Assembly: GCA_006844605.1 (NCBI GenBank)
Contig: SPJN01000013.1
Coordinates: forward strand, 760-64,759
Direction: 5' to 3'
Length of the DNA stretch: 64,000 nt
Origin: Hyphomicrobiales bacterium
GTDB taxonomy: Bacteria; Pseudomonadota; Alphaproteobacteria; SPJN01
A program made the position numbers and the translations under genes. Shown one piece after another: positions 1-22,773 of the stretch; the first letter of the stretch is position 1; the number at the start of each line of letters is the position of its first letter. The notes beneath the pieces are model-generated. The model was given only the letters and a program-made list of their open reading frames with translations. It ran no database searches and was not told where the DNA came from.

Positions 1-159
1 ATAATCGAACTGGTGTGACAGGCCTGTTGTGCCAACATCAATGACAATGGCGGATCCAACAGACTGGTTTCTGGAGAGACGAATGTCGCGCCGATCAAGA
101 TAACGGAGAACTTTATGGCGTGGCTCATGGCCAAAGGGCGGTTTGGTCTGTGTAGTCAT
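1..159 (-). CDS. hypothetical protein; only the 5' part is in the window (the gene runs off the window start)
   Basis: Seen in sequence. Reverse-strand ATG at 159-157 with an AAGGAG Shine-Dalgarno 8 nt upstream (plus-strand 'ggggggctcctt' at 160-171). The frame stays open through all 53 codons down to position 1 (MTTQTKPPFGHEPRHKVLRYLDRRDIRLSRNQ...). It is not in the supplied ORF track because no in-window stop exists. Same strand as the integrase and directly downstream of it. Confidence 0.35.
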   Translation of the reverse strand, partial: MTTQTKPPFGHEPRHKVLRYLDRRDIRLSRNQSVGSAIVIDVGTTGLSHQFDY

Positions 160-295
160 GGGGGGCTCCTTCTTGTTTTATTGTCTGCAAAGATTTCCCT
201 TTGCTAAATCCCAAGTGTTCAGGATCGACCAGATCGTCAAGAGCACTTCTGGGCGAATTGAAAATTTTTGTTCTGCGTTGTGTCTTTAGACATCT

Positions 296-1504: not shown

Positions 1505-1514
1505 TGCTCACCCC

Positions 1515-1736
1515 CTAGTGTTGAGAGACAGGCAGCAATGAGGAGCCACCATCGTTCATATCGCTCTCAATCTGCTCCCAAATGTAAAGAATCTTCCGAC
1601 CGCCAAAGGGACGGATGTAGTGAATGCCCTCCAGAAGGACGGAATCTTTGAGGCGTTCACGAATGGTGCGGGGGTCGTACTTAATGAGCGAAGAAAGCTC
1701 TTCTGTCGTGAGGTAGGTGTTTTTCGCTTGCATCAT
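1515..1736 (-). CDS. AlpA/Xis-family DNA-binding excisionase-like protein
   Basis: 73 aa. HTH-like segment 'YLTTEELSSLIKYDPRTIRERL'. Lies 10 bp upstream of int on the same strand, the classic xis-int arrangement. The family call is by resemblance, not by computed search. Confidence 0.55.
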   Translation of the reverse strand: MMQAKNTYLTTEELSSLIKYDPRTIRERLKDSVLLEGIHYIRPFGGRKILYIWEQIESDMNDGGSSLLPVSQH

Positions 1737-1885
1737 CTGGTTATTCCTTTCATTTTGTTACTTCACATGACGACACATCAGGTTGCTGGGCGTTATGTCG
1801 TTCTAAATGACATATAGTATGCATAAGTGTACATGTCAAGGGCGTTTTGTATAAAAAAGAGACTTTATGTCGTTTTGGGTGACGT

Positions 1886-2089
1886 ATGATTAAGTGCCAC
1901 TTGTCCCGGATGATGGGAGAACGGAAGCTAAAGGTGATGGATGTTGCGCGGGAAACGGGCCTCCACCGCAATACTGTGACCTTGCTTTATAAGGAAACCG
2001 CAACACGAGTTGATCTCGAAGCGGTTGATAAGCTTTGTGAGCTTTTTGATTGCGAGGTTGGGGATCTTTTCGAACGGATCACGGATTAA
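1886..2089 (+). CDS. XRE/Cro-family helix-turn-helix transcriptional regulator
   Basis: 67 aa. HTH 'LKVMDVARETGLHRNTVTLLYKE' followed by '...LCELFDCEVGDLFE', typical of small XRE regulators. Divergent from xis-int, so a Cro/CI-like control module for the island is plausible. Confidence 0.6.
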   Translation: MIKCHLSRMMGERKLKVMDVARETGLHRNTVTLLYKETATRVDLEAVDKLCELFDCEVGDLFERITD

Positions 2090-2099
2090 AGGACCAACC

Positions 2100-3005
2100 A
2101 TGATTCCTGATTATCAAAGTTTAATGCTCCCTGTGTTGCAGGAAGGCGCCGAAGAGGAAATTAGCACACGCGATGCCATTGAAAATCTGGCTTCCAAGTA
2201 CGGGTTGTCAGAAGAGGATCGCGAGCAGATGCTGCCTAGCGGTAAACAGCGCACCTTTGATAATCGTGTAAATTGGGCGAAGGGCTACCTGAAGCAGGCT
2301 GGCTTAGTCAGATATACTGATCGCGGTGCCTATGTGGCGACTGATGAGGGGCGAAAAGTTCTCGCTACAAATCCAGAGAGAATCGACAACAAGTTTCTCA
2401 AGCAATACGAAGCCTTTCAAGAATTTCAAAATCGCAAAGGCACTCAAAGCGAAAAAGAAGAGACGCAGGATGGGGTTGATGATGCAATTACCCCGGATGA
2501 AGCGCTTCGCGCAGCGCACCGCAAAATCAATGCGTCACTAGCCGCCGACCTTTTGGGCCGAGTAAGAGAGGCCTCACCGCAATTTTTTGAAGAGCTGATT
2601 GTCGAATTATTGCTTGCGATGGGGTATGGCGGCACTTCAGAAGATGCTGCCCGCGCGTTGGGGCAATCGGGAGATAACGGCGTTGATGGTGTGGTCGATC
2701 AGGACCCTCTTGGCGTTGATCAGGTCTATGTCCAAGCAAAGCGATACGCGGAAACTAATAAAATAGGTTCCGGAGATATTCGCGATTTCTTTGGCGCGCT
2801 CAATCTAAAAAAGGCGCAAAAAGGTATATTCTTCACCACCTCTTCATTTAGTCCGGCGGCGGTTCAAACAGCGAAGGACCTTGGGATGCGGATTGTACTT
2901 ATTGACGGGGCGCAGCTAGCAAAGCTCATGATCAAATATGGAGTTGGGTGTCGGGAAGAGGAAGTTATCAGGCTGATGGGCATTGACGAAGAGTATTTCG
3001 ACTAA
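2100..3005 (+). CDS. mrr: Mrr-family type IV (modification-dependent) restriction endonuclease
   Basis: The track ORF 2010..3005 is trimmed to the ATG at 2100 (MIPDYQSLMLPVLQE…), which matches the usual Mrr N-terminus and follows 'aaaggacc' right after the XRE stop at 2089. N-terminal Mrr_N winged helix. C-terminal Mrr_cat region with 'GVDGVVDQD…VYVQAKRY' (D…QxK catalytic motif) and 'IFFTTSSFS'. Confidence 0.8.
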   Translation: MIPDYQSLMLPVLQEGAEEEISTRDAIENLASKYGLSEEDREQMLPSGKQRTFDNRVNWAKGYLKQAGLVRYTDRGAYVATDEGRKVLATNPERIDNKFLKQYEAFQEFQNRKGTQSEKEETQDGVDDAITPDEALRAAHRKINASLAADLLGRVREASPQFFEELIVELLLAMGYGGTSEDAARALGQSGDNGVDGVVDQDPLGVDQVYVQAKRYAETNKIGSGDIRDFFGALNLKKAQKGIFFTTSSFSPAAVQTAKDLGMRIVLIDGAQLAKLMIKYGVGCREEEVIRLMGIDEEYFD

Positions 3006-3058
3006 AGGGGTATTACCGCTGGTCCCTAGGAATGAATGTGAAATGAAAGAAGAATTCA

Positions 3059-5851
3059 TTGAACGCAGTTGAGATTGAACAAGCAATTACGGAATTGGCG
3101 GAACAGCCCTTTGACGGGCAAGAGTTTCCGTTCGATTTTTTGCGCGCGTTTGGCAATAAAGAAACCACGATCAAGCGCCTGAAAAAGGGTGACTCTAACA
3201 AATCAGACTTGGGTGGGGTGCTGCAACGAAGCCATATCCACATCAAAGTTTGTGAAGAAGGCAAGGTCACCCAAACGCTGGAAGCTTTGAAAGCAAGCCC
3301 CGCAACGACCAAGGCGAAGGCCAAATTTGTTCTTGCCACTGATGGTATTCAGCTAGAGGCGGAATACCTGAATACCGGTGAAACGGTCGCCTGCAATCAT
3401 AATGATTTTCCAGATCATTTTGGTTTCTTCCTGGCGCTTGCCGGTATCACCACTGTTAAGCAAATCCGCGAAAGCTCATTCGACATTAAGGCAACGGGCC
3501 GATTGAACCGGCTTTATATTGAGTTGCTCAAAGACAATCCGGAATGGAGCACGGCTGAACGCAGGCCGGATATGAACCATTTCATGGCGCGGTTGATCTT
3601 TTGCTTCTTTGCCGAAGATACAGACATCTTCCACGGGGATGACCTGTTTACCTCCACCATCGAGCAAATGAGTGCGCGGGATGCGTCTGATACCGATCAT
3701 GTGATTAGCGAAGTCTTTCGTGCCATGAACACGAAAACGGAAGATAGGGAAAAGGCAGGCATTCCCCGCTGGGCCAATGGCTTTCCATACGTGAACGGGG
3801 GGCTGTTTTCCGGTAGTACGGAAACGCCGAAATTTAGCAAGATTGCGCGGTCTTACCTGCTGCATATCGGCAACCTTGATTGGAAGAAGATCAACCCGGA
3901 TATCTTTGGCTCTATGATCCAGGCGGTGGCCGATGATGAAGAACGCGGCCATCTGGGGATGCACTACACCAGTGTGCCGAATATCCTGAAAGTTTTAAAC
4001 CCGCTGTTTTTGGATGATTTGCGGGCCGGGCTTGATGCCGCCGGTGATAGCGCGCAGAAGCTACTAAATCTACGCAAACGTATGGCGAAGATCAGGGTGT
4101 TTGATCCTGCCTGTGGCTCCGGCAACTTTCTGGTCATTGCCTATAAGGAAATGCGAGCCATTGAGGCGGAGATAAACAAGCGTCGTGGGGAAGAACATCT
4201 TAAAACGACTATTCCGCTTACCAACTTTCGCGGCATTGAGGTGCGGGACTTCCCGGCAGAGATAGCACGTCTAGCCCTCATCATCGCGGAATATCAATGC
4301 GATGTGACTTATCGTGGCCAGAAGGAGGCGTTGGCAGAGTTTCTGCCATTGAATAAAGAAAACTGGATCACTTGTGCAAACGCGCTGCGTGTTGATTGGC
4401 TGTCCATCTGTCCGCCCACTGGCACGGGTGTAAAACACTATGCCGATGATTTGTTTCATTCGCCGGTTGATCAGGCCGAGATCGATTTTGAGAACGAGGG
4501 GGGTGAGACCTACATTTGTGGGAACCCGCCATATTTGGGCAGTACATGGCAATCCAAGGAGCAAAAAGAAGATTTAAAGGCTATCTTTGATGGCAAGACC
4601 AAAACCTGGAAGTCATTGGATTATGTTGCTGGATGGGTGATGAAGGCGGCTGAATTTGGCAGACATACCAAATCCGTTTCTGCTTTTGTGACTACAAACT
4701 CAATTTGCCAAGGCCAACAGGTGCCAATTTTGTGGCCTTTAGTCTTTGAGACTGGCCATGAAATTACATTTGCCCACACGTCATTTAAGTGGGCAAATTT
4801 GGCAAGCAAAAACGCTGGTGTAACAGTAGTAGTTGTTGGGATAGGACGAGAATTCGGCGCGAGGCGCCTCCTATATTCCCATGATAACGACAATCATGAA
4901 ACCGTATTAGCAGCAACCAATATCAACGCCTACCTTGTGCCGTCAGGTGGCGTGCTGGTGAAAAAGCAACAACAGCCCATTTCAGACGTTCCACCGATGG
5001 TATTCGGAAACAAACCGGTTGATGGCGGGCATCTGATCCTTTCAAAGAGCGAGATAGGCGAATTGTGTTTGACCGACAACGAGGTCAGAAAATTTGTTAG
5101 GCCATTTCTGGGTTCGGAAGAGTTCATTTCGGGTAAACAGCGGTTTTGCCTATGGATTGATGATGGATGTGTTGATGACTTGTTGAGACATCCAATAGTA
5201 GCGCAGCGTGTTGCTGCTGTTGAGAAGATGAGACTGAACAGCACCAAAGTGGCAACAAATCGCGCAGCGGCGTGGCCCCATCGGTTTGATGAAATACGGC
5301 AAAGGGGGTCGGAAACATCTTTGTTGGTTCCAAGCGTTTCATCTGAAAGCAGACCATATTTGCCAGTTGGCTACGTCCCAGAAGGGACAATAGTTAGCAA
5401 CCTTGCATTCGCCTTGTTTGATGCGCCGCTCTGGGTAACTTCAGTAATTGCTTCACGAACTCATCTGGTGTGGGTGAAAACGGTGTGTGGGCAACTCGAA
5501 ACTCGCATTAGGTACTCCAATACCCTTGGTTGGAACACCTTTCCGTTACCTAAGCTGACCGAGAAAAACAAAGAAGACCTGACACGCTGCGCCGAAGATA
5601 TTTTGCTTGCGCGGGAGGCGCATTTTCCTGCGACCATTGCCGACCTGTATGATCCTGAGAAAATGCCAGAAGATTTGCGCCGGGCGCATGATCGCAATGA
5701 TGAGGTGTTGGAGCGCATCTATATCGGTCGCCGCTTCAAAAATGACACCGAACGCTTGGAAAAGCTTTTTGAGCTTTATACCAAGATGACCGCTAAACTG
5801 GAAACCTGTCGGCAAACGAAAGACAATAAAAAAGGGAAGGCACATGCATGA
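3059..5851 (+). CDS. MmeI-family type IIL/IIG restriction-modification enzyme (N-terminal endonuclease region, gamma-class N6-adenine methyltransferase, C-terminal target-recognition domain)
   Basis: 930 aa, TTG start at 3059. From memory it aligns along the whole length with MmeI (919 aa): 'LIFCFFAEDTDIF', 'FPYVNGGLF', 'FDPACGSGNFLV' (motif I), 'FRGIEVRDFPAEIARLALI', 'GNPPYLG' (motif IV) and the C-terminal 'LYDPEKMPEDLRRAH…LFELYTKMT'. In the putative PD-ExK endonuclease segment the sequence is 'ATDGIQLEAEYL' and does not obviously conserve the D…ExK spacing; see findings. Confidence 0.85.
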   Translation: MNAVEIEQAITELAEQPFDGQEFPFDFLRAFGNKETTIKRLKKGDSNKSDLGGVLQRSHIHIKVCEEGKVTQTLEALKASPATTKAKAKFVLATDGIQLEAEYLNTGETVACNHNDFPDHFGFFLALAGITTVKQIRESSFDIKATGRLNRLYIELLKDNPEWSTAERRPDMNHFMARLIFCFFAEDTDIFHGDDLFTSTIEQMSARDASDTDHVISEVFRAMNTKTEDREKAGIPRWANGFPYVNGGLFSGSTETPKFSKIARSYLLHIGNLDWKKINPDIFGSMIQAVADDEERGHLGMHYTSVPNILKVLNPLFLDDLRAGLDAAGDSAQKLLNLRKRMAKIRVFDPACGSGNFLVIAYKEMRAIEAEINKRRGEEHLKTTIPLTNFRGIEVRDFPAEIARLALIIAEYQCDVTYRGQKEALAEFLPLNKENWITCANALRVDWLSICPPTGTGVKHYADDLFHSPVDQAEIDFENEGGETYICGNPPYLGSTWQSKEQKEDLKAIFDGKTKTWKSLDYVAGWVMKAAEFGRHTKSVSAFVTTNSICQGQQVPILWPLVFETGHEITFAHTSFKWANLASKNAGVTVVVVGIGREFGARRLLYSHDNDNHETVLAATNINAYLVPSGGVLVKKQQQPISDVPPMVFGNKPVDGGHLILSKSEIGELCLTDNEVRKFVRPFLGSEEFISGKQRFCLWIDDGCVDDLLRHPIVAQRVAAVEKMRLNSTKVATNRAAAWPHRFDEIRQRGSETSLLVPSVSSESRPYLPVGYVPEGTIVSNLAFALFDAPLWVTSVIASRTHLVWVKTVCGQLETRIRYSNTLGWNTFPLPKLTEKNKEDLTRCAEDILLAREAHFPATIADLYDPEKMPEDLRRAHDRNDEVLERIYIGRRFKNDTERLEKLFELYTKMTAKLETCRQTKDNKKGKAHA

Positions 5852-5873
5852 CAGATGCAAGTGAAAACGCACC

Positions 5874-6818
5874 ATGGTAAAGGCAAGCAGAAATGGACTT
5901 AGGCTCGACGCTGATTTCACTGAGGATACGGTCGGCTTCGCGCTTGAATCGTTCTTGGCGGTGATGAGTTTTCCACGTCAGCGCTTTTCGATAGAGCCGT
6001 TCTCTCGTGCCAAGGAACGGTGGTTGGCCGCTGATGCGCGATTGCACGGTGATGTGCGCGGGTTTTGCCCCATTTATATGCAATTTAAAAGGCCGTCTGC
6101 GTATCCAGATTTTAGTACTGCGAAAATTATTAGGGAAAGAAAGGCGCTGAACCTTCTAACGTCGCCCCATGCCCTCTATTTTGATCTACGCCAGAAACAG
6201 CAACATCATTGGGATTTCCAGCACAATATTCTATTCCGGCTCGGTCAAAGGCTTCGCAGTCGTCAGCTTGGTGATGCCGCCTATGTTTGCCCTTTATTCC
6301 TAGAACGGTCCGCTTACAGATTCCATGTGCACTTGTCCGGACTTTCGCTGTGGCCGCGCTTTTGGAGACATTATCCTTGGGAATATGAAGAAGTTTTAGT
6401 AGGCGATGGCGGCAGGAAGATTCGCTTCGATCGTATCCCTGTGCTGGCGGAACACATAACTGTGCCGCCGCACAAAACGGTTTCAAGCGCCAAGCATCGT
6501 TACAGCTTCACGGAAGCAGGAAATGAACTGTGTTTCCACTCGCCAGAGGCCATTCCTGATGGAGCAACTACTCTCGCTGCATTTTTGGATGCGTTGTCAG
6601 GTCGCTTTCTGGGTGGTGGTGAAAAAATCCGGTCAGAGCAAGCAAACCAAGAACTTCAGGACTTGATGAATGAGGTCTTGGGCGATGGGCGTGAAGTCCC
6701 CCAGTCAATCATCGAGATGGACGCGTCTGACCCCATTGGAAACTGGTTGGCTTGGGGCGATTATTTGCGTCTGGAATTTGGAATAGATCAGTACGCGCTG
6801 GTAAGGTGGGAGGATTAG
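5874..6818 (+). CDS. hypothetical protein; candidate HamA-like (DUF1837-type) partner of the downstream helicase
   Basis: 314 aa. No family recognised from sequence. It starts 22 bp after the MmeI-like gene. Its 3' end carries the 'gggagg' Shine-Dalgarno for the GTG start of the helicase gene 3 bp downstream. It contains a possible nuclease-like 'GDVRGFCPIYMQFKRP' segment. The HamA assignment is inferred from gene order only. Confidence 0.45.
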   Translation: MVKASRNGLRLDADFTEDTVGFALESFLAVMSFPRQRFSIEPFSRAKERWLAADARLHGDVRGFCPIYMQFKRPSAYPDFSTAKIIRERKALNLLTSPHALYFDLRQKQQHHWDFQHNILFRLGQRLRSRQLGDAAYVCPLFLERSAYRFHVHLSGLSLWPRFWRHYPWEYEEVLVGDGGRKIRFDRIPVLAEHITVPPHKTVSSAKHRYSFTEAGNELCFHSPEAIPDGATTLAAFLDALSGRFLGGGEKIRSEQANQELQDLMNEVLGDGREVPQSIIEMDASDPIGNWLAWGDYLRLEFGIDQYALVRWED

Positions 6819-6821
6819 AAA

Positions 6822-8873
6822 GTGAGCAATGCTAAATCAATCCCCTCCGTTTCTGTCACTTACGCCCGCAATGGTAGCTCCAAGCAATCGAATGAGCTCG
6901 GAATGCGGGTTATGCAGGAACGCGCCTATGACCGGCGGGGGGAACAGTATCTGCTGATCAAGTCACCACCGGCATCGGGCAAAAGCCGTGCCTTGATGTT
7001 CATTGCGCTTGATAAGCTAAACAATCAGGGCTTGAAGCAGGCCATCATCGTTGTGCCGGAAAAGTCCATTGGGTCCAGCTTCAACAATGAACCTTTGTCT
7101 GATTTTGGATTTTATTGGGACTGGTCTGTCGAGCCAAAATGGAACCTGTGTAATGCGCCGGGGGAAGAAGGCGGCAAGGTTAAGTCCGTAAAGGCGTTTC
7201 TGGATAGTGATGATCAGGTGCTGGTTTGCACGCACTCCACATTCCGTTTTGCGATAGATAAGTTTGGTGCGGATGTATTTGATGATCGCCTAATTGCCAT
7301 TGATGAATTTCACCATGTCAGCGCAAACCCTGATAACAAGCTGGGCGCGCATTTGGGCGAGTTCATGGCGCGCGATAAAGTTCATATCGTGGCGATGACA
7401 GGCTCATATTTCCGTGGTGATGCTGTGCCGGTGATGGCGGCGGATGATGAATCCCGCTTTGCGACCGTCACCTATACCTATTATGAGCAGCTCAACGGCT
7501 ATGAGCACCTAAAGACGCTCAATATCGGCTATTATTTCTATTCGGGTTCCTATGTGGGCGAGATTTTGAGCGTTCTCGATCCGAGCGAAAAGACCATTGT
7601 GCATATCCCGAACGTGAATTCGCGGGAAAGCACGAAAGACAAGATCAAGGAAGTTGAAGATATCATTGAAGAGCTGGGAGACTGGAAGGGCACGGACCCT
7701 GTTACCGGATTCCATCTCGTCGAAACAGCCGATGGGCGCACATTGCGCATTGCGGATCTTGTGGAAGACGGTGCCAATAAACGCGATAAGGTATCGGCCG
7801 CGCTGAAAGACCCCACGCAAAAAGATAATCGTGATCATGTCGATATCATCATCGCGCTTGGTATGGCGAAAGAAGGGTTTGACTGGATTTGGTGTGAACA
7901 TGCACTAACCGTCGGGTATCGCTCTAGCCTGACAGAAATTATTCAGATCATTGGCCGCGCAACCCGTGATGCGCCGGGCAAGGAAAGCTCGCGCTTTACA
8001 AATTTGATTGCAGAGCCGGATGCCTCTGAAGAAGCGGTAACCGAAGCCGTCAATGATACGCTGAAAGCCATTGCCGCCAGCTTGTTGATGGAGCAGGTGC
8101 TTGCTCCGCGTTTTAACTTTACGCCGAAAGCGACATCCACTGGCCCAACCGAAGGCGTTGATTACGGTGAAGGCGGCTATGATCCTGAAAAGACCAATGT
8201 TGGGTTCTGCGAAGAAACAGGCCAATTCGAGATTGAGATCAACGGCCTTGTCGCTCCAAAAGGTGATGATGCGCAGCGCATTTGTAAGGAAGACTTGAAT
8301 GAAGTGATCACGGCATTCGTGCAGGACAAAACGAATGTTGAGCGTGGTATCTTTGATGAAGAAATGGTGCCCGAAGAACTGACACAGGTTCGTATGGGCC
8401 GTATCATCAAGGACAAATACCCTGAGCTTGATGAAGAAGACCAAGAGGCTGTCCGCCAACATGCGGTGGCCGCCCTCAACCTCGTGCAGGCCGCAGATGG
8501 GAAGATCAAGGAAACCGAAGGTGACGAATTTGGTGGCAGCACCGCATTGATTGATGGGGTGCGTAAGTTCGCGATGGATGTGCGAGACCTCGATATTGAT
8601 TTGATCGATAGGATCAACCCATTTGGCGAGGCCTATTCCATCTTGGCTAAATCGATGAGCGAAGAGAGCCTAAAGCAGGTGGCGGCGGTGATCGCTGCAA
8701 AGCGAACCAAAATCACCCCAGATGAGGCCCGTGATTATGCAATTCGCGCTGTGAAGTTTAAACGTGAACATGGGAGGGTTCCTTCTGTAAGCGCTGCTGA
8801 CCCGTGGGAACAAAAACTAGCTGAAGGTGCTGCAGCTTTTGTGCGGTTCAAGGACGAGGGCCGATATGAGTGA
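6822..8873 (+). CDS. superfamily-2 DExH-box helicase (candidate Hachiman HamB-like)
   Basis: 683 aa. GTG start with a strong Shine-Dalgarno (gggagg). Walker A 'SPPASGKSRAL', motif II 'AIDEFHHV' (DEFH), motif VI 'QIIGRATRD'. A C-terminal ~250 aa acidic extension follows. Confidence 0.8.
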   Translation: MSNAKSIPSVSVTYARNGSSKQSNELGMRVMQERAYDRRGEQYLLIKSPPASGKSRALMFIALDKLNNQGLKQAIIVVPEKSIGSSFNNEPLSDFGFYWDWSVEPKWNLCNAPGEEGGKVKSVKAFLDSDDQVLVCTHSTFRFAIDKFGADVFDDRLIAIDEFHHVSANPDNKLGAHLGEFMARDKVHIVAMTGSYFRGDAVPVMAADDESRFATVTYTYYEQLNGYEHLKTLNIGYYFYSGSYVGEILSVLDPSEKTIVHIPNVNSRESTKDKIKEVEDIIEELGDWKGTDPVTGFHLVETADGRTLRIADLVEDGANKRDKVSAALKDPTQKDNRDHVDIIIALGMAKEGFDWIWCEHALTVGYRSSLTEIIQIIGRATRDAPGKESSRFTNLIAEPDASEEAVTEAVNDTLKAIAASLLMEQVLAPRFNFTPKATSTGPTEGVDYGEGGYDPEKTNVGFCEETGQFEIEINGLVAPKGDDAQRICKEDLNEVITAFVQDKTNVERGIFDEEMVPEELTQVRMGRIIKDKYPELDEEDQEAVRQHAVAALNLVQAADGKIKETEGDEFGGSTALIDGVRKFAMDVRDLDIDLIDRINPFGEAYSILAKSMSEESLKQVAAVIAAKRTKITPDEARDYAIRAVKFKREHGRVPSVSAADPWEQKLAEGAAAFVRFKDEGRYE

Positions 8874-10053
8874 CCCTGACCTAGATGAATTGCGGAGTGA
8901 GTTGGCTGAATTTGCCAAACCTCAAAAGTCGATTAAGAGAACCGCCAAAGAAGAGCGAATCATTTCTGGGTTTGAGGAAATTCAGCGCTTTGTTGATGAG
9001 CACGGTCGTCCGACTGCACATGGCGAGGAGCGAGATATTTTTGAGCGGCTTTATGCAGTTCGTTTGGATCGCATTCGTGAGCAAGCTGAGTGCCGTGAAC
9101 TAGTCGAAGAACTGGATCATCAAGGCCTGCTAGGCGATCAGCCGATTGAAGTGGTAGCAGATGACATTGATGATGAAGCGCTTCTTGCTGAATTAGGTGC
9201 AGAAAGCGAAACATCTGACCTAACTCAATTGAAGCATGTTCGTTCCACGGCTGATCGAAAAGCCGCTGAGGAAATTGCGGATCGAAAGAAGTGTGAGGAT
9301 TTTGAAAAATTCAAACCTTTGTTTGAACGTCTTCGTGATGATCTCGATAAGGGTAGGCGCGAGACAAGGCCAGTTACAAAGGATTCAGGTTTTGTGAAAG
9401 CTGACATTAATGTCGGACAATTTTTTGTTCTTGGCGGCCAGATCGCATATGTTGCTAGCGTAGGCGAGCGGATAAAGGCCCCAAATGGCGATTATGACGC
9501 TCGGCTGCGCGTGATCTATGATAATGAAACTGAAAGCGACCTTCTGCAAAGATCACTTCAGCGGGCGTTATACAAGGACGAAGCGGGAAGGCGTGTTACA
9601 GAAGCAGACGCAGGACCATTGTTTTCCGGTGTAGCGGGTGAGGATGACGAGCAAAGCGGCACAATTTATGTCCTGCGTAGCAAATCGGACCATCCAACAA
9701 TTTCAGCTAATCGTGACCTGATCCACAAAATCGGTGTAACGGGTGGTGACGTGAAGAAGCGGATTGCGAATGCAAAGAATGATGCAACCTACCTTTTGGC
9801 TGATGTGGAGGTTGTGGCGACTTATGAGCTCTACAATATCAATAGAACCAAGCTCGAAAAGTTGATCCACAAGTTTTTTGACACGGCTCGCTTGGACATC
9901 GAGATTAAGGATAGGTTCGGCAATCCAGTTTCACCCCGTGAGTGGTTCATTGTGCCGTTGTTTGTTATCGATGAAATGGTTGATAAGCTGATGGAGGGGG
10001 CATTGGATCAGTGCCAATTTGATCCTACATCCGTTGCGATTAGGGTGAGATAA
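8866..10053 (+). CDS. T5orf172 (MUG113)/GIY-YIG-superfamily domain protein with coiled-coil N-terminus
   Basis: The track ORF 8827..10053 is trimmed to the ATG at 8866 (MSDPDLDEL…), which overlaps the helicase stop (ATGAGTGA) and indicates translational coupling. C-terminal 'GTIYVLRS…IHKIGVTGGDVKKRIAN…EWFIVP' resembles the T5orf172 / GIY-YIG-like fold. The N-terminal half is charged and helical. Confidence 0.55.
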   Translation: MSDPDLDELRSELAEFAKPQKSIKRTAKEERIISGFEEIQRFVDEHGRPTAHGEERDIFERLYAVRLDRIREQAECRELVEELDHQGLLGDQPIEVVADDIDDEALLAELGAESETSDLTQLKHVRSTADRKAAEEIADRKKCEDFEKFKPLFERLRDDLDKGRRETRPVTKDSGFVKADINVGQFFVLGGQIAYVASVGERIKAPNGDYDARLRVIYDNETESDLLQRSLQRALYKDEAGRRVTEADAGPLFSGVAGEDDEQSGTIYVLRSKSDHPTISANRDLIHKIGVTGGDVKKRIANAKNDATYLLADVEVVATYELYNINRTKLEKLIHKFFDTARLDIEIKDRFGNPVSPREWFIVPLFVIDEMVDKLMEGALDQCQFDPTSVAIRVR

Positions 10054-10220
10054 CCAGATTATTTGTTGAAGGATCGGGTGGCAATCTATTTGTGGGTGCG
10101 GATTTCTGTGTTATTCGGCATTTGGGGTGTTGGTCAGTTCAAACAATTCACTAATTGGCTATAAATGTGGTGGTATTTACACTTGAAGCCGGGCCTCATT
10201 TTTTCCATAATGAACTTTCC

Positions 10221-10397
10221 AACTGGTGCTCTTTACGCGTAATGCCTCTGGCATGGTCAGGTGTATAGCTAGACCCAAACTTATTGAGCGGATTATGGCG
10301 CGATAAGGCCAAATTTCCTTATCTAGCGCTCACAGGTTCGCTTATTTAGATAAGGAAATTTGGCCTTATCGCTTACTCTTAGGTATTGAGCCCAGTT
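10221..10397 (+). ncRNA. candidate retron msr-msd non-coding RNA (hypothetical)
   Basis: Intergenic region directly upstream of the effector + RT gene pair. An imperfect inverted repeat, 'aactggtgctc' at 10221-10231 against 'gagcccagtt' at 10388-10397, could serve as the a1/a2 pair (~177 nt apart). The 26-bp perfect hairpin at 10300-10372 inside it would be the msd stem. The boundaries are not proven. Confidence 0.25.
10300..10372. repeat. perfect inverted repeat (26-bp arms, 21-nt loop)
   Basis: 'gcgataaggccaaatttccttatctag' … 'tagataaggaaatttggccttatcgc'. No U-tract follows it. It is flanked by the 8-bp direct repeat 'tattgagc' at 10282-10289 and 10384-10391. Confidence 0.85.
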
Positions 10398-10399
10398 TG

Positions 10400-11353
10400 A
10401 TGACTCTGCAAGATGATGATCCTAGATATAGTATCATCAAAGGCGTTGATTTTTCCAAGTCTAGAATATTATTGGAGCCGCACATCATATTTGTTTGTGG
10501 CGGAGTTGTTGATATTACCGCAACAGAATGGAAGTCGTTGCGTAATCTGTTTATGAACTTGGCTGGGGGGGCGGATACACACGCGGACAGTTTCATGTTA
10601 GCGGAAAATTTTAAGGATTGGCGCGAAGGATACAAAAGTCTGTCAAAATTTGAGGAGGATATTGCTTTCATTTCTTCGCTGGTCGTTCTGTTTCTCGAGA
10701 GCCCCGGTGCATTAGTTGAGCTCGGGTTGTTCTATTCCAGTGGCCAAATTCGGAAGAAGTTATTTGTGGTAGTTCACAATTCCTATCATGATTCAGATTC
10801 ATTTATAAAACTCGGAATACTGGCCCCCTTGGAAGAGGTTAGCCAAGAATTAGTGCGCTCGTATGAGCTGGATCACGAAAATCCATCTGGCATTGATGAG
10901 CAAGCGGTCAAGGAGGTTTTAGATGACGTTTTGAATCAGGTAAACAATACGCCTAAGACTCAAGCGTTTAGTACGGACGATAGAGGACATCAGATATTCT
11001 TTGTCTATCAAATGATCAAAATGTCGGGTGCTCTTACTTTTCAGGAAATTGAAGATTTGATTGCAGAAAGTGAGTTAGAAGTCAAAAAATCTGAGATCAA
11101 GACTGCATTGTTTATTCTCGAAAAGTTTGGATTTGTTAGCAAAACAAAGGAGTCTTCCCAGTTCTTCTATTATGCAAGCAATCAAGAAATGGATCGGGTT
11201 GATCTTCATGTGGAGATTCAAGGGGAGGTCCGTAGTGTTACAGAACTGAAAATTGATCTAGGCCAATATTATCACCAGTTAGCAAAATCGAATGTCACAT
11301 TTAAGAGACGGCTGAAAGTGATGAACAGGCAGGATTCGGGAGAGGTTCAATGA
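10400..11353 (+). CDS. putative retron effector: SLOG/LOG/NDT-like Rossmann N-terminal domain plus C-terminal winged-helix domain
   Basis: The track ORF starts at TTG 10397; ATG 10400 is preferred. 'IIFVCGGVVD' and '…VVLFLESPGALVELGLFYSSG' resemble the LOG/NDT 'GGxG … PGGxGTxxE' signatures. The C-terminus 'FQEIEDLIAESELEVKKSEIKTALFILEKFGFV' looks like a winged helix. The stop overlaps the RT start (ATGA). Confidence 0.5.
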   Translation: MTLQDDDPRYSIIKGVDFSKSRILLEPHIIFVCGGVVDITATEWKSLRNLFMNLAGGADTHADSFMLAENFKDWREGYKSLSKFEEDIAFISSLVVLFLESPGALVELGLFYSSGQIRKKLFVVVHNSYHDSDSFIKLGILAPLEEVSQELVRSYELDHENPSGIDEQAVKEVLDDVLNQVNNTPKTQAFSTDDRGHQIFFVYQMIKMSGALTFQEIEDLIAESELEVKKSEIKTALFILEKFGFVSKTKESSQFFYYASNQEMDRVDLHVEIQGEVRSVTELKIDLGQYYHQLAKSNVTFKRRLKVMNRQDSGEVQ

Positions 11354-12300
11354 AGCCATCCGAACTGTTGCGCAATCAATTCTCTTTGTCATCGAACGAG
11401 TTGCAGCGGTACGTAAATTCGTGCCCTCATAGATACAAAACATACAATATTAGAAAGAGAAATGGTGGCGCACGGGAGATCTCCCAACCTTCTAGGGATT
11501 TAAAGATCGTCCAGAGGTTTCTGATTGATGAGCTGTTGATAGAGAATCTAATGGTTCATAAGGCGGCGACAGCTTATCGAAAGGGCCGGAACATTGTGGA
11601 TAATGCTCGGCCGCATTTAGGCAATCAGTTTCTGCTGAAAATTGATCTTGAGGAATTCTTCCCATCCATCAAAGGAGATGACTTCGAGAAATACCTTTCT
11701 GAGAAATTTCCGATGGAGGAAGCCGAAGTTGCCCTGCTGACTAGAATTTTCTTTAAATCTGATAATGGCGAGCTAAAGCTAAGTATTGGATCGCCTGGTT
11801 CGCCCCTAATTTCGAATGCTCTGATGTTTCGTTTTGATAATGTGATTTCAGATTATGCTGACAGGATGAATGTAGCTTATACGCGCTACTCAGATGATAT
11901 GACGTTCTCAACAAACGAACGAGGGGCTTTATTCGATTGGCCGAAAATGGTTGGAGACGAGCTGGGCAGGTTGGATTATCCCACTCTTAGACTTAACCCT
12001 GACAAAACTGTGTTCTCATCAAAGAAATTCAACCGTCATGTCACAGGTATTACGATTACAAATGAGGGTACTGCTTCGATCGGTAGAGGGCGAAAGCGAG
12101 AGTTGAGATCGAGGCTGTTCAATGTTCAAAATTTGAACGCGGAAGAGCGGCGGCAATTGAGGGGACATATTGCTTTTGCCGCACAGGTGGAGCCAGATTT
12201 TGTGGAAAAACTTGGACAAAAGTACGCTAACGAACTTCAAGCTTTGTCGCGCAGTGATCCTGATAACGTTGATGTAAATCCGTCAAAGAAGGATTCTTGA
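11350..12300 (+). CDS. retron-type reverse transcriptase
   Basis: 316 aa. RT motifs: 'RKRNGGAREISQP' (1), 'FLLKIDLEEFFPSI' (2), 'SIGSPGSPLISNALM' (B-like), 'YTRYSDDMTF' (YxDD). Also the two retron-diagnostic motifs 'NARPH' (NAxxH) and 'HVTGITI' (VTG). Confidence 0.85.
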   Translation: MKPSELLRNQFSLSSNELQRYVNSCPHRYKTYNIRKRNGGAREISQPSRDLKIVQRFLIDELLIENLMVHKAATAYRKGRNIVDNARPHLGNQFLLKIDLEEFFPSIKGDDFEKYLSEKFPMEEAEVALLTRIFFKSDNGELKLSIGSPGSPLISNALMFRFDNVISDYADRMNVAYTRYSDDMTFSTNERGALFDWPKMVGDELGRLDYPTLRLNPDKTVFSSKKFNRHVTGITITNEGTASIGRGRKRELRSRLFNVQNLNAEERRQLRGHIAFAAQVEPDFVEKLGQKYANELQALSRSDPDNVDVNPSKKDS

Positions 12301-12437
12301 TATAGGTCATCTAGGCTATAGGGATTTTGGGTGTTTCAATGTGGCGTAAAGTCTTGGGCACAATATGGACACAAAATGGTCACAGCGCAGTGCAGCCAAA
12401 ATAGCCGTTCTGTAGCCTGTTGATTTCATTGACAAAA

Positions 12438-12514
12438 TGGTGGGCGATACAAGATTTGAACTTGTGACCTCTGCCATGTCAAGGCAGCACTCTAACCAAC
12501 TGAGCTAATCGCCC
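12438..12514 (-). tRNA. tRNA-Val (anticodon GAC)
   Basis: The reverse complement reads GGGCGATTAGCTCAGTTGGTTAGAGTGCTGCCTTGACATGGCAGAGGTCACAAGTTCAAATCTTGTATCGCCCACCA. Cloverleaf: 7-bp acceptor stem, anticodon stem CTGCC/GGCAG with loop TTGACAT (anticodon GAC), T-loop TTCAAAT, and an encoded CCA. Confidence 0.9.
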
Positions 12515-12635
12515 GCACCATTTAGAGACGGCCTTTCTAGTGAAATTCGCGCGGTGCCGCAAGCCTTCATCGCGGAAAAAAGTGCGGCAAAGTTCACCGT
12601 AATTGGCTCCCTTAAAGGGCGTCCCGATCGTTGCC

Positions 12636-12965
12636 CTATAATTTCACCGGTGCGAAATGGGGAAAGGGGCGGTCGCAGCCGGCGACATTGGCCAATGCGG
12701 GAAAGCTGGCGACTTCGCCCATTTTGGCCCACAGGGCCTGCACGCGTTCGTTCGTGTGGGCAGCCGCCGCGGCCTCATCATTGGCCCATTCAAAAATTTC
12801 CAGAAAAGTGCCGTCATCCGCATGAAGCAAAAGCGACGGGCGCGACGTTGCCAGCCCTTCCATTTTTAGTGTCATATGATGTTGCGCAATCAGGTCGCGC
12901 AATGCTTCATGGTTTTTGGGATCGTCCGTGTCGGGCTTATAGGTGGCGATGGTAAAGCGGCTCAT
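12636..12965 (-). CDS. antibiotic-biosynthesis-monooxygenase (ABM)-family / stress-responsive alpha-beta barrel protein
   Basis: 109 aa small barrel-like protein (…TFLEIFEWANDEAAAAAHTNERVQALWAKMGEV). Its start overlaps the upstream gene's stop (ATGA). Confidence 0.5.
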   Translation of the reverse strand: MSRFTIATYKPDTDDPKNHEALRDLIAQHHMTLKMEGLATSRPSLLLHADDGTFLEIFEWANDEAAAAAHTNERVQALWAKMGEVASFPALANVAGCDRPFPHFAPVKL

Positions 12966-19806: not shown

Positions 19807-22773
19807 ATGGCTTCTGAGCATACAAATGCCCTACCGCGTGGTTATCGCATTGACGAGTATGAACTCGTCCGTGTGCTGGGGGCCGGTGGGTTTGGCATCA
19901 CCTATCTTGGGTTTGATCACAATCTTGATAAGCAGGTTGCGATCAAGGAATATTTGCCGCGTGAATTGGCAACCCGTATAGATGGCTCAACCGTTGCGCC
20001 ACATTCGTCGGGCGATCAGTCCGATTTTGAATGGGGGTTGGACCGCTTTTTGGAAGAAGCGCGGGTTTTGGCCCGGTTCGATCATCCCAATATTATCAAG
20101 GTTTATCGTTTTTTCCGTAATCACGGCACCGGTTATATCGTGATGGATTACGCGGAAGGTGAAAGCCTGTCCGCCTATTTGGGGCGTCAGGGCACCATCA
20201 CCGAACCGCAATTGCGCGGTATCTTGATGCCGTCCTTGTCGGGTCTGAATATGATCCATGCCGGCGATGTGCTGCACAGGGATATCAAGCCGGGCAATAT
20301 CATGATCCGTACCGATGGTACGCCGGTCTTGATTGACTTTGGTGCTGCCCGTCAGGCGATGAACAATAAAAGTCTGTCTGTGACGTCTATTGTGACGCCC
20401 GGCTATGCCCCGATTGAGCAATATTCCACCAAGGGCAATCAAGGCCCGTGGACGGATATTTATGCGTTGGGGGCTGTTGCCTATCGCTGTTTGATGGGCC
20501 ACACGCCTGAGGATGCGACGGACCGTATTCTTGATGATGAAATGGTGCCCGCGGTTGAAGCTGCCAAGGGCAAGGCCAGCCCGGAATTTTTGGCTGCGAT
20601 TGATGCGGCATTGGCAATACGCGAGGCTGATCGACCCCAAACGATTGCCGATTGGATCGAGATGTTCGGTGAAGTGCCCGAAAATGTCTTGTCTATCGGC
20701 GGTGGTCGCAGCCGCAGCAATGAAACCAGTCGTTTGAATGTGTCATCTGGCGAACCGAAATCCGGTGGCGGCAGCAAGACGGGCCTGTTTGTCGGGCTTG
20801 GGTTGTTGGTCGCCGCGGGGCTTGGTGCCGGTGGCTATTTCGCCATGGGCGGCTTTGGCGGTGGCGATGGTGGCAGTACAGCTGGTGGTGGGCAGGGCAC
20901 AACCGCCGCTGTGCCGCAACAGGCCACTGTGGCCTTGACCGCAGAACAGATCACAACCGTGCAGGCGCAACTCCTCGCGCTGGGCTATCGCGTTGCAAAG
21001 AACGGTGAAATGGATGCGCGCACCAAGTTGGAACTGACGCGCTTTCAAATGGAAAAGGGCTTGCCCCAATCCGGTGTTGCCGATGCGCCCACCATGCAGC
21101 GTTTGAAGGTTGAACGTGATCGCGTGGATCAAAAGGCATGGCTTGAAGCATCCGGTGGTCATACGGTCAGCGGCTATGCTGCCTATTTGAAGGAATGGTC
21201 AGACGGGAATTACCGGACGCGGGCAGAAGCGGCGATCAAACAATTGCAGGCCGATGAAGCGCGCCTGAACGAGGCTGAAAAGCGGGCTGCGCAATTGGCC
21301 AAGGATGATGATGCCTATGCCAAGGCGCAAGGCCAGCACACACTTGATGCCTATCGCGCCTATTTGAAGAATTTCCCCAAGGGACGCCATGTTGCGCAGG
21401 CAACGCAGGCGTTTGACCGCCTGAACGCGGTTCGTAAGGCCGAAGAAAAGGCCAAGCAGGATCGTGCAGAAACCACACTGCGCAAGGAGGCGCAGACCCT
21501 GCTGATCCAGATGGGGTATGATGTTGATAACCGTTCAGGCCGGGCAACAACAAAAACCAACAAGGCGGTCGAAGAATTCCGGGGCGAGGTGGGCCTGCCT
21601 GTATCGTCCAAGGTGGACCTGATCTTGTTGTCCAATATGCGCCAGGTCGCCGAAGATCGTTTGTGGGCCAAAACCAAAAAGGCCCGCAGCGCCCGCGCCT
21701 ATGAAACCTATCTCGACAGTTATCCTGATGGCCGCTATGCCGCTGAAGCACGTGACAATCTGGGTAAGGCCAAGCAGATGGCTGCAATGGCGGATGCCGA
21801 AAAAACCCTGACCCGTTCCATCCAGACAGAGCTGGGACGCCTTGGTTATAAGGTGCGGACTAATGGTGATTTTGATACGGCAACCGCAACGGCCATTGAG
21901 CTGTTTGAGCAAGAAACAGGTCGCAAGGTTACCGGCGAAATGTCAGACGAGCTGTTGGCAAATCTAAAGGCCACCAAGACACGTCCGGGTAAGGAAATGA
22001 AGATTGGCGGTATCGTCAAGGATTGCGAGGCTTGTCCGCCATTGGTTGTGGTGCCGACCGGTTCATTGACCATGACAACCAAAACAAAAAAGGGTGAACC
22101 AAGCGTCCGTAAAATTGCGATTGATACGCCCTTTGCCGTTGCGGTGGCTGAGGTGACGTTTGATGAATGGGATGCCTGCGTCGCCGCCTTTGCCTGCCAG
22201 CATAAGGGTGATCCCGGCTTTGGTAAGGGGCAGCTGCCTGTGGTTGGCGTCAGCTTTAATGACGCGCAAAATTATGTCGGCTTCCTGTCTGCCAGAACGG
22301 GCAAACCCTATCGGTTGTTAAGTGAAGCGGAATGGCAGTATACCGCTGGTGCCGGTGTCAGCAGTGCCTATGCATTTGGTGACAATGCACAGGAAATTTG
22401 CGCCTATGGCAATGTTGCGGGCAAGGAATCAGGCTTTGACTGGGGCAAGGATGGCTGTACCGACCAACACGGCCAGACAACCGCCCCTGTGAAATCATAT
22501 AAGCCGAACAAATTCGGTGTCTATGACATGCATGGTAATGCTGCCGAATGGGTGGCTGATTGCTGGCACGATGATTATGAAGGCGCGCCGACAAACCGTA
22601 AATCATGGGAAAGCGGCGGTGATTGTAACTGGCGCATCCTGCGTGGCGGTTCGTGGCGCAACGCGGTAGATTACAGCACGCTTGACCGCCGCTCCAAAAT
22701 GTTCGGCGTGGTGCGGGCCAATACAAACGGTTTCCGTGTTGTGCGTGACTTGGTGGACGGAGAAGGGCAATGA
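19807..22773 (+). CDS. Hanks-type Ser/Thr protein kinase with TM helix, three periplasmic peptidoglycan-binding (PG_binding_1-like) repeats and a C-terminal FGE-sulfatase (SUMF1-like) domain
   Basis: 988 aa. The start follows the upstream stop directly. Kinase motifs 'LGAGGFGITY', 'AIKEY', 'HRDIKPGNIM', 'DFGAAR', 'APIEQ'. TM helix 'LFVGLGLLVAAGLGAGGYFAM'. Three 'LG(Y)…G.D…T' PG-binding-like repeats alternate with 'Y..YL…P.GRY' repeats. The C-terminus has 'GDPGFGKGQLPVVGVSFNDAQNY…EAEWQYTAGAG…YDMHGNAAEWV…RGGSW…GFRVVRD', typical of FGE-sulfatase. Confidence 0.85.
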   Translation: MASEHTNALPRGYRIDEYELVRVLGAGGFGITYLGFDHNLDKQVAIKEYLPRELATRIDGSTVAPHSSGDQSDFEWGLDRFLEEARVLARFDHPNIIKVYRFFRNHGTGYIVMDYAEGESLSAYLGRQGTITEPQLRGILMPSLSGLNMIHAGDVLHRDIKPGNIMIRTDGTPVLIDFGAARQAMNNKSLSVTSIVTPGYAPIEQYSTKGNQGPWTDIYALGAVAYRCLMGHTPEDATDRILDDEMVPAVEAAKGKASPEFLAAIDAALAIREADRPQTIADWIEMFGEVPENVLSIGGGRSRSNETSRLNVSSGEPKSGGGSKTGLFVGLGLLVAAGLGAGGYFAMGGFGGGDGGSTAGGGQGTTAAVPQQATVALTAEQITTVQAQLLALGYRVAKNGEMDARTKLELTRFQMEKGLPQSGVADAPTMQRLKVERDRVDQKAWLEASGGHTVSGYAAYLKEWSDGNYRTRAEAAIKQLQADEARLNEAEKRAAQLAKDDDAYAKAQGQHTLDAYRAYLKNFPKGRHVAQATQAFDRLNAVRKAEEKAKQDRAETTLRKEAQTLLIQMGYDVDNRSGRATTKTNKAVEEFRGEVGLPVSSKVDLILLSNMRQVAEDRLWAKTKKARSARAYETYLDSYPDGRYAAEARDNLGKAKQMAAMADAEKTLTRSIQTELGRLGYKVRTNGDFDTATATAIELFEQETGRKVTGEMSDELLANLKATKTRPGKEMKIGGIVKDCEACPPLVVVPTGSLTMTTKTKKGEPSVRKIAIDTPFAVAVAEVTFDEWDACVAAFACQHKGDPGFGKGQLPVVGVSFNDAQNYVGFLSARTGKPYRLLSEAEWQYTAGAGVSSAYAFGDNAQEICAYGNVAGKESGFDWGKDGCTDQHGQTTAPVKSYKPNKFGVYDMHGNAAEWVADCWHDDYEGAPTNRKSWESGGDCNWRILRGGSWRNAVDYSTLDRRSKMFGVVRANTNGFRVVRDLVDGEGQ

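Follow-up and report, generated by a model that had tools for sequence, protein, structure and literature searches.

The 64,000-nucleotide stretch of Hyphomicrobiales DNA considered here (GenBank assembly GCA_006844605.1, contig SPJN01000013.1, positions 760 to 64,759 of the forward strand; this is the window to which all coordinates below refer) very probably carries a type II-A1 retron of the St85/Sen2 family that is complete and, as it appears, functional; it most likely acts against phage by abortive infection, as a toxin-antitoxin system of three parts. The whole unit, consisting of a structured RNA, an effector gene and a reverse transcriptase (RT) gene, spans 10218-12300. The locus has all three components and membership in a defined family, its two proteins keep their catalytic residues, the RNA structure is marked by covariation, and the two genes are coupled. 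A first-pass annotation of the window, made from its sequence alone, had recognized a retron-type RT overlapped by an upstream effector. The RNA, which lies upstream of both genes, was not part of that report.

The reverse transcriptase

The RT carries the NARPH motif at residues 85-89 (nt 11602-11616), YSDD at 180-183 (11887-11898) and, within HVTGITI, VTG at 231-233 (12040-12048). NARPH and HVTGITI had been the grounds for calling it retron-type in the first-pass annotation, and classification with profile models bears that call out. The protein matches Pfam RVT_1, and it scores 321.7 bits (E 3.9e-96) against NCBIfam NF038233, the model of the 'retron St85 family RNA-directed DNA polymerase' (retron_St85_RT), for which the curated cut-off is 235. 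Its best PADLOC model is RT_II-A (363 bits, E 2.6e-109), with RT_I-A second (320 bits), and all 25 best PADLOC matches listed for it are retron RT models. Among solved structures the Ec78/St85-family RTs are nearest (207 bits), followed by Ec83, while Ec86 reaches only 105 bits. The RT of the St85-family retron that RefSeq annotates in E. coli TUM2805 (NZ_CP128951) is 41% identical over 290 residues.

Type II-A1 is defined by an RT of clade 1, an RNA class that type I-A has too, and an effector with a nucleoside deoxyribosyltransferase (NDT)-like domain plus, at the C-terminus, one that binds DNA; the members named are Retron-Sen2 (St85), Vch2 and Eco3 (Mestre et al. 2020, PMC7736814). The retron_St85_RT score, the ranking of RT_II-A and RT_I-A, and the proximity to Ec78 all place the protein, as judged from its sequence, in clade 1. 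That RT_I-A should be the second-best model and Ec78 the nearest structure is explained by the sharing of RT clade 1 between types I-A and II-A1, and it follows from the definition of Mestre et al. that the subtype would be II-A1 and not the Ec86-type II-A3.

The effector

The product of the upstream gene scores 202.8 bits (E 8.5e-60, cut-off 100) against NCBIfam NF038232 (STM3845_fam, 'retron St85 family effector protein') and 250 bits (E 6.5e-75, residues 9-304) against NDT_II-A, its best PADLOC model. The segment in which the first-pass annotation saw an NDT-like effector is indeed present, as FVCGG at residues 31-35 and LESPGALVELG at 99-109. The latter contains E107, which, together with 32 other positions, is invariant in 13 effector homologues. 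A profile of these 13 proteins, compared with the PDB, finds the Retron-Ec86 effector (E 5.9e-20, residues 25-186), and the inactive-mutant chain 8qbl_G (E106A) differs from the wild type exactly at the glutamate that aligns with E107.

Structure prediction points to the same protein. An AlphaFold2 model built on the homologue alignment (mean predicted local distance difference test score 86.9, predicted template modelling score 0.87) has Retron-Eco1 effector chains (8qbk/8qbl/7xjg) as its three top Foldseek matches, with ~310 aligned columns, E ~3e-9 and a template modelling score of ~0.5; the Eco1 effector, one entry of which is titled 'inactive effector (E106A)', is the only full-length PDB match. 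Many winged-helix repressors of the MecI, BlaI and ArsR/CzrA types come next, matching the C-terminal part, where Pfam places a Penicillinase_R winged helix (residues 202-267; at 22.5 bits just at the threshold of 22.6); the C-terminal winged helix that had been proposed for this protein is thereby upheld. A design study of RcaT-Sen2, a protein that had no experimental structure as of that 2025 report, took V106 as a surface residue beside the active site (PMC12405559), and V106-E107 of the window protein have the same numbering as that active-site neighbourhood.

These comparisons support a member of the St85/RcaT family with a C-terminal winged helix and an N-terminal domain homologous to the N-glycosidase (NDT-like) effector of Retron-Eco1, in which the catalytic glutamate is retained as E107. 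The NDT label is a reading by homology to the Eco1 effector and from the literature.

The msr-msd RNA

The sequence immediately preceding the effector gene folds into an RNA with the anatomy of a retron transcript. Positions 10214-10405 reach a minimum free energy of -78.6 kcal/mol (z = -7.4 relative to dinucleotide shuffles), with arms a1 and a2 forming a closing stem that consists of a core and a 6-bp outer extension. A search of 9500-12700 against Rfam returns a full-length plus-strand match to RF00170 (retron msr) at 10228-10292 (38.2 bits, E 2.4e-4). The candidate branching guanosine, G10237, is placed by analogy: its column (G24 of alignment A2) is invariant in eight loci and matches the branching G in UUAG*CG, the motif of the Rfam msr consensus. 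An extra C before this G (UUUACG*CG) is found in the alphaproteobacterial loci and in three gammaproteobacterial ones. The msd hairpin is a perfect inverted repeat whose palindromes are GGCC and AATT/AAATTT.

The RNA is conserved at homologous loci. A scan of one genome per species with an effector profile yielded 21 loci; the nearest are alphaproteobacterial (Sulfitobacter 45%, Hyphomicrobiales 42%, Leisingera 39% and Robiginitomaculum 36% identity) and the rest are mostly from gammaproteobacteria. In nearly all 21 the 300 nt upstream of the effector hold the same element, with a near-invariant msr and with msd arms that are unrelated in sequence but self-complementary. According to RNAalifold, an eight-locus alignment folds into 39 pairs, of which 24 show compensatory changes. 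For a fixed structure of 38 pairs in the same eight loci, 94.7% of cells are paired (34-45% after a shift of the partner by 1-3 columns), compensatory double changes occur at 23 pairs, and covariation is 0.632, as against 0.08-0.16 in the slid controls; on four of five measures none of 500 shuffles comes up to what is observed. Nineteen of the 24 aligned pairs of the msd hairpin show a compensatory change, and stem-loop 2 is 100% paired. At stem-loop 1, which varies in length, the MAFFT alignment is out of structural register and per-sequence folds were used instead; independent minimum-free-energy folds of 19 homologous loci give the same RNA architecture.

Some of these relatives look damaged. 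The Sulfitobacter RT reading frame (locus L002, 5951-6643) ends after 230 aa, and the effector frames of Robiginitomaculum (L004) and Stutzerimonas (L008) are interrupted. These could be pseudogenes or assembly errors in metagenome-assembled and draft genomes.

The Rfam family STnc400, which represents the msd part of Sen2-like retrons, is not matched in 9500-12700, although the gammaproteobacterial loci do match it. This is the expected divergence of msd sequences and not evidence against a retron. STnc400 (RF02058) is listed as a gammaproteobacterial small RNA, and its matches fall on the msd half of RNAs from Sen2-type retrons, immediately behind the msr match (127 bits in Pectobacterium, L018 4802-4931; 55 bits in E. 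coli, L023 1303-1439); that 'small RNA' is evidently the retron msd region. Table 1 collects the features of the retron together with those of its surroundings.

Table 1. Features of the retron locus and of the adjoining island, in window coordinates
Feature	Position	Strand	Remarks
Tyrosine integrase	296-1504	-	Upstream of the retron
Mrr-type type IV enzyme	2010-3005		Upstream of the retron
MmeI-like type IIG enzyme	3059-5851		Complete; upstream of the retron
Cassette	3059-10053	+	MmeI-like gene, 683-aa DEAD/ResIII helicase, then T5orf172/MUG113 protein
314-aa open reading frame	5874-6818	+	Between the MmeI-like gene and the helicase
Promoter-like site	10183-10211	+	TTGAAG-17-CATAAT, sigma-70-like, from a consensus scan; would set the transcript start at about 10218, where the extended a1 arm has its 5' edge
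Retron RNA (msr-msd)	~10218-10399	+	Closed by the a1/a2 stem; from minimum-free-energy fold, shuffles and covariation
a1 arm	10221-10236	+	Core GCUCUUUAC 10228-10236, paired with 10383-10391; outer extension AACUGG 10221-10226, paired with 10392-10397; U10227 bulged; from inverted repeat, minimum-free-energy and consensus folds
msr region	10228-10292	+	Stem-loop 1 10242-10254, stem-loop 2 10255-10275, then conserved AAYUUAUUG linker
Candidate branching guanosine	10237	+	Putative priming 2'-OH; first unpaired G after a1, motif UUUACG*CG
msd template (predicted)	10293-10382	+	From retron anatomy: starts immediately 5' of a2, would be copied from 10382 backwards
msd hairpin	10300-10372	+	26-bp inverted repeat 10300-10325 / 10347-10372, 100% complementary, 21-nt loop
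a2 arm	10383-10397	+	Core GUAUUGAGC 10383-10391; extension CCAGUU 10392-10397; from inverted repeat and folds
Effector gene (RcaT/STM3845 family)	10400-11353	+	317 aa from ATG; reading frame opens at TTG 10397
Retron RT gene	11350-12300	+	316 aa
tRNA-Val(GAC)	12438-12514	-	ARAGORN; Rfam tRNA 71.7 bits; context of the island edge, not part of the retron

Gene coupling, module boundaries and expression

The RT start and the effector stop overlap by four bases: 11350-11353 reads ggttcaATGAagcc. A six-frame list of open reading frames and direct reading of this junction leave the gene positions and the ATGA overlap just as they had first been given. A start-stop overlap (ATGA, or of 1 nt) recurs at most of the homologous loci, and translational coupling is therefore a trait of the family. 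The order RNA-effector-RT on one strand is common to the window, to loci L002-L020 and to the annotated E. coli member, and downstream of the effector the RT is present at every locus whose contig reaches far enough, which sustains the earlier comparison of the gene order with type II-A retrons such as Retron-Sen2.

When all island proteins are compared with the 21 loci by tblastn, only the effector and the RT recur as a pair, and together with the RNA they are the only elements conserved jointly. The island neighbours (the helicase, the T5orf172 protein and the 314-aa protein) were considered as additional retron parts and set aside, none of them co-occurring with the effector-RT pair in the 21 loci; the retron, for its part, does not occur at any of 80 loci with the helicase cassette.

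A -10-like box is found 6-16 nt upstream of a1 at most homologous loci. At the other end of the RNA, a2 stops 3 nt short of the effector ATG, and the folded stem reaches the A of that codon (10383-10402), thus covering the site at which a ribosome-binding site would sit. In the alphaproteobacterial loci L002-L005 the distance from a2 to the effector ATG is likewise short (6-20 nt) and includes no terminator-like hairpin, whereas in gammaproteobacterial loci (L009-L019) it is 44-69 nt and holds a GC hairpin followed by a T-run. These peculiarities of the clade (the extra C, the U.U mismatches discussed below, and a2 abutting the effector) are minor variations, but they suggest a different control of expression.

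A more specific proposal can be built on them, unlikely as we hold it to be: that in an alphaproteobacterial branch of type II-A1, made up of the window locus and those of Sulfitobacter, Leisingera, Robiginitomaculum and Hyphomicrobiales, the toxin is controlled in a way that differs from the enterobacterial models. Since a2 lies so close to the effector start and no hairpin resembling a terminator intervenes, translation of the effector, and of the RT coupled to it, could be gated by the folding or processing of the retron RNA; and since the msd carries GGCC and AAATTT in place of GATC or CCWGG, it may sense other phage methyltransferases or nucleases.

A proposed mode of action

The scheme that follows, from the synthesis of multicopy single-stranded DNA (msDNA) through toxin-antitoxin logic, substrate and triggers to phage defence, is modelled on experiments with Retron-Sen2 and Retron-Eco1. 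Sen2 is a tripartite toxin-antitoxin system in which RT-msDNA is the antitoxin and RcaT the toxin; each of RT and RcaT is recovered in pull-downs of the other, and the system cannot do without the msDNA (10.1101/2020.06.22.160168). Dam, by methylation at GATC, and RecE, by degradation, are phage or prophage functions that act through the Sen2 msDNA as triggers of toxin release and abortive infection (10.1101/2020.06.22.160242). The activated effector of Eco1 is an N-glycosidase that hydrolyses NAD(P)+ (summarized in PMC12673091).

By analogy, a single transcript starting near 10218 would comprise the msr-msd RNA followed by the effector and RT genes, with translation of these two coupled through ATGA. 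The RT would recognize the msr stem-loops, prime on the 2'-OH of G10237 and copy the msd template from 10382 back to ~10295, yielding a predicted msDNA with a 26-bp hairpin and an estimated length of ~85-90 nt. The RT-msDNA complex would bind the effector and silence its N-glycosidase domain (putative catalytic residue E107). Phage functions that methylate, degrade or sequester the msDNA would break the antitoxin, and the freed effector might then attack NAD(P)+ or a related N-glycosidic substrate, stopping growth of the infected cell.

Points to be weighed

Several observations weigh against a complete retron that works in the manner just described. The msr match falls short of the RF00170 gathering score of 52; this is of little concern because the annotated E. 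coli TUM2805 retron also stays below it, with only 42.2 bits. The core of the a1/a2 stem contains two U.U mismatches; identical mismatches occur in all alphaproteobacterial relatives, which makes them a trait of the clade and not a sign of decay, and the 6-bp outer extension compensates for them in the window. The msd hairpin contains no GATC, GANTC or CCWGG, so that methylases cannot trigger this retron in the way known from Sen2 and Eco1. Promoter-like sites are no more numerous than in shuffled sequence, and the one listed in Table 1 is supported by its position only. The substrate of the N-glycosidase is known only for Eco1, a II-A3 homologue that is ~16% identical to the effector in the structural alignment. 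Finally, the RT is ~19 residues shorter at its N-terminus than the Ec86 RT, the two aligning from residue 15 here and from residue 34 of Ec86. The Ec86 RT has an N-terminal helix that Eco1 is described as requiring for dimerization (PMC12673091); the filament architecture of Eco1 may therefore not apply.

Three other accounts of the locus can be held up to the same evidence. An RT of another class (group II intron, diversity-generating retroelement, abortive-infection RT, or the defence-associated DRT and unknown-group RTs), or a retron of type I-A or II-A3, with an upstream gene unrelated to it, might be entertained on account of the second place of RT_I-A among the PADLOC models and of the type I-A retron Ec78 as the nearest solved RT. 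Types I-A and II-A1, however, share RT clade 1 by definition (PMC7736814), and there is no PtuA ATPase or PtuB HNH gene nearby. Group II intron was tried and rejected as a class for this RT at 43.4 bits (NCBIfam cut-off 300), as were Drt2 (39.9 against 390), Drt3a (26.1 against 200) and Drt4 (12 against 450), all far under their curated cut-offs; the placement in some other RT class that would have undone the first-pass call is thus not what the scores give. Type II-A3, represented by Ec86, fares no better (105 bits, against 207 for Ec78), and in 21 genomes the RNA accompanies the effector-RT pair. The scores have already refuted this account, and its chances are practically nil.

It is also highly improbable that the locus is a decaying or silent relic that is retron-like but no longer makes msDNA or a working toxin. 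The damaged relatives mentioned above (L002 with its 230-aa RT, L004 and L008 with interrupted effectors), the two mismatches in the a1/a2 core and the lack of an obvious Shine-Dalgarno sequence before the effector ATG would fit such a state, but neither open reading frame is shortened or lacks a catalytic motif, the 26-bp repeat of the msd hairpin is without a mismatch, and the core mismatches are offset by the outer extension and common to all alphaproteobacterial relatives. A different matter is the purpose that an intact retron serves. Its main role could be that of an addiction module, keeping the tRNA-Val defence island in the chromosome, rather than phage defence: toxin-antitoxin behaviour is genuine in Retron-Sen2, the retron of the window stands right at the tip of an island that was acquired horizontally and differs in GC content from both island and chromosome, and relatives too are found near tRNA genes. 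We nevertheless consider this quite unlikely, since the experimentally studied II-A and I-A members defend against phage, with phage-encoded triggers, and since the neighbours here are all defence genes, which is the usual setting of a defence island. Stabilizing an island and defending against phage are, in any case, not mutually exclusive roles.

Relation to known retrons

The type II-A1 retron of the window is most readily compared with Retron-Sen2 (St85; msrmsd-rcaT-rrtT) of Salmonella Typhimurium. Both have the same three parts in the same order; the two window proteins pass the NCBIfam models of the Sen2 family, the effectors are of the same length class and agree in their V106-E107 numbering, and the msDNA length predicted here is close to the 85 nt of St85. 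The differences are those of distance. The host of Sen2 is an enterobacterium and that of the window retron an alphaproteobacterium, the window effector is only ~30% identical to the gammaproteobacterial members found, its msd is unrelated in sequence, with neither an STnc400 match nor GATC in the hairpin, there is an additional C ahead of the branching G, and a2 abuts the effector start with no terminator-like hairpin intervening.

The annotated St85-family retron of E. coli TUM2805, which we take to be Ec73-like, also has an effector followed by an RT, and its effector is 29.5% identical to that of the window. It resides on a P4-like element with P4-type psu/delta genes and not in a tRNA-Val island, and its msd does match STnc400, if weakly, where the window msd does not.

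Retron-Eco1 (Ec86, II-A3) has in common with the window retron the fold of the effector and its catalytic glutamate; its RT belongs to a different clade (clade 9). Type II-A3 was considered for the window and rejected on the RT, which by its scores is not of clade 9 and has no counterpart of the N-terminal helix. The window retron is thus Eco1-like at the level of the effector but is not a II-A3 member. With Retron-Eco7 (Ec78, I-A) the relation is reversed: RT clade 1 and the IA/IIA1 RNA class are common to both (PMC7736814), but the effectors of Eco7 are PtuA, an ATPase, and PtuB, an HNH nuclease, neither of which is found beside the window RT. No gene for an ABC ATPase or an HNH protein occurs among the neighbours (Mrr, MmeI-like, 314-aa, helicase and T5orf172 proteins), and an assignment to type I-A fails on that account.

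The island

The retron is the tRNA-proximal member of a defence island. The 3' end of the tRNA-Val(GAC) gene, the only tRNA gene found there, faces the RT stop codon at a distance of 138 nt, which confirms the placement at the tRNA-proximal tip that had been proposed from the sequence. The GC content is 0.41 in the effector gene and 0.44 in the RT gene, 0.48-0.53 in the rest of the island and 0.56 over the 51 kb that remain; past tRNA-Val it climbs from 0.43 to 0.56-0.60. AcnA encoded in the window is 72-73% identical to proteins of Parvibaculaceae, Microbaculum, Methyloligella, Sneathiellaceae, Emcibacter and Zavarzinia. The first-pass description of an AT-rich retron in a high-GC alphaproteobacterium is therefore right as to the retron and the affiliation of its host, and overstated as to the chromosome, which at ~56% is only moderately GC-rich. 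No direct repeat of the tRNA-Val 3' end was found in 1-12700, and local alignment of 12291-12520 with 1-2000 gives only chance matches of 10-14 nt; the island may extend beyond the start of the window.

A tRNA gene is also present in the 5-kb flanks of eight of 19 related retron loci (for example L002 4352-4427, L015 3933-4009, L003 8651-8724 and L008 8495-8571), and two of these, for tRNA-Lys and tRNA-Met, lie 400-700 nt upstream of the retron RNA. This retron family seems often to be located in tRNA-linked islands.

The genes for the MmeI-like enzyme, the helicase and the T5orf172/MUG113 protein make up a cassette that is both widespread and conserved (loci L024-L103). More than 558 metagenomic proteins are related to the helicase, with identities of 74-79%, and in the 80 best helicase loci the T5orf172 gene directly follows in every case and the MmeI-like gene precedes in 72. 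The cassette corresponds to the DnmA(YeeA)-YeeB-YeeC cluster, of which PADLOC v2 models only the methyltransferase-nuclease gene. The role of this cluster in defence is unsettled: in B. subtilis no phenotype was seen, while mutants of Vibrio crassostreae show phage sensitivity (PMC9973331). The 314-aa reading frame inserted in the window cassette has no match in Pfam, PADLOC, NCBIfam or PHROGs and is missing from all 80 related cassettes, in which the corresponding slot varies from ~20 nt to ~2.7 kb.

Elsewhere in the window, the minus strand at 62664-63824 encodes a protein of 386 aa that has the restriction-endonuclease domain Mrr_cat (E 1.5e-5). It lies in a low-GC stretch (0.46) at the far end and may be part of a second acquired defence region. 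Two further genes are chromosomal and unrelated to the retron: one at 27645-29285 (minus strand) for the exosortase E/protease of the VPEID-CTERM system (391 bits, cut-off 150), and one at 19807-22773 (plus strand) for a 988-aa Ser/Thr kinase, residues 716-982 of which match the model of PvdO (dihydropyoverdine dehydrogenase) with 162.7 bits, below its cut-off of 500.

Spread of the family and what the locus adds

The St85 family is already described, well populated and automatically annotated, so that the identification made here is a correct call but an ordinary find. The RT has 343 relatives at E <= 1e-20, with a best identity of 59%, and many of them (in Thalassospira, Agrobacterium, Pseudovibrio, Roseibium, Roseobacteraceae, Kiloniella and Leisingera) already bear the name 'retron St85 family'. 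Annotated St85-family effector genes are found on large replicons of E. coli and Vibrio and in Pseudomonas Pf phages. Cluster representatives of the effector family number 1055 at E <= 1e-3, 541 at E <= 1e-10 and only 39 at E <= 1e-30, and the best identity of the window effector to any protein found among ~15 billion is 46-49%. As far as its sequence can tell, it is an outlier and not a different kind of protein; the earlier surmise that the effector subtype might be divergent is accordingly to be kept for the sequence and dropped for the subtype.

Existing knowledge of retrons is unchanged by this locus. What it adds is a complete and well-delimited II-A1 retron from an alphaproteobacterial lineage, for which the RNA, the branch point and the msDNA template are predicted to the nucleotide. 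It is of use in annotating the defence island of this genome, it possibly offers a new msDNA scaffold for retron-based editing, and it provides a divergent test case for how far the mechanisms worked out for Sen2 and Eco1 reach.

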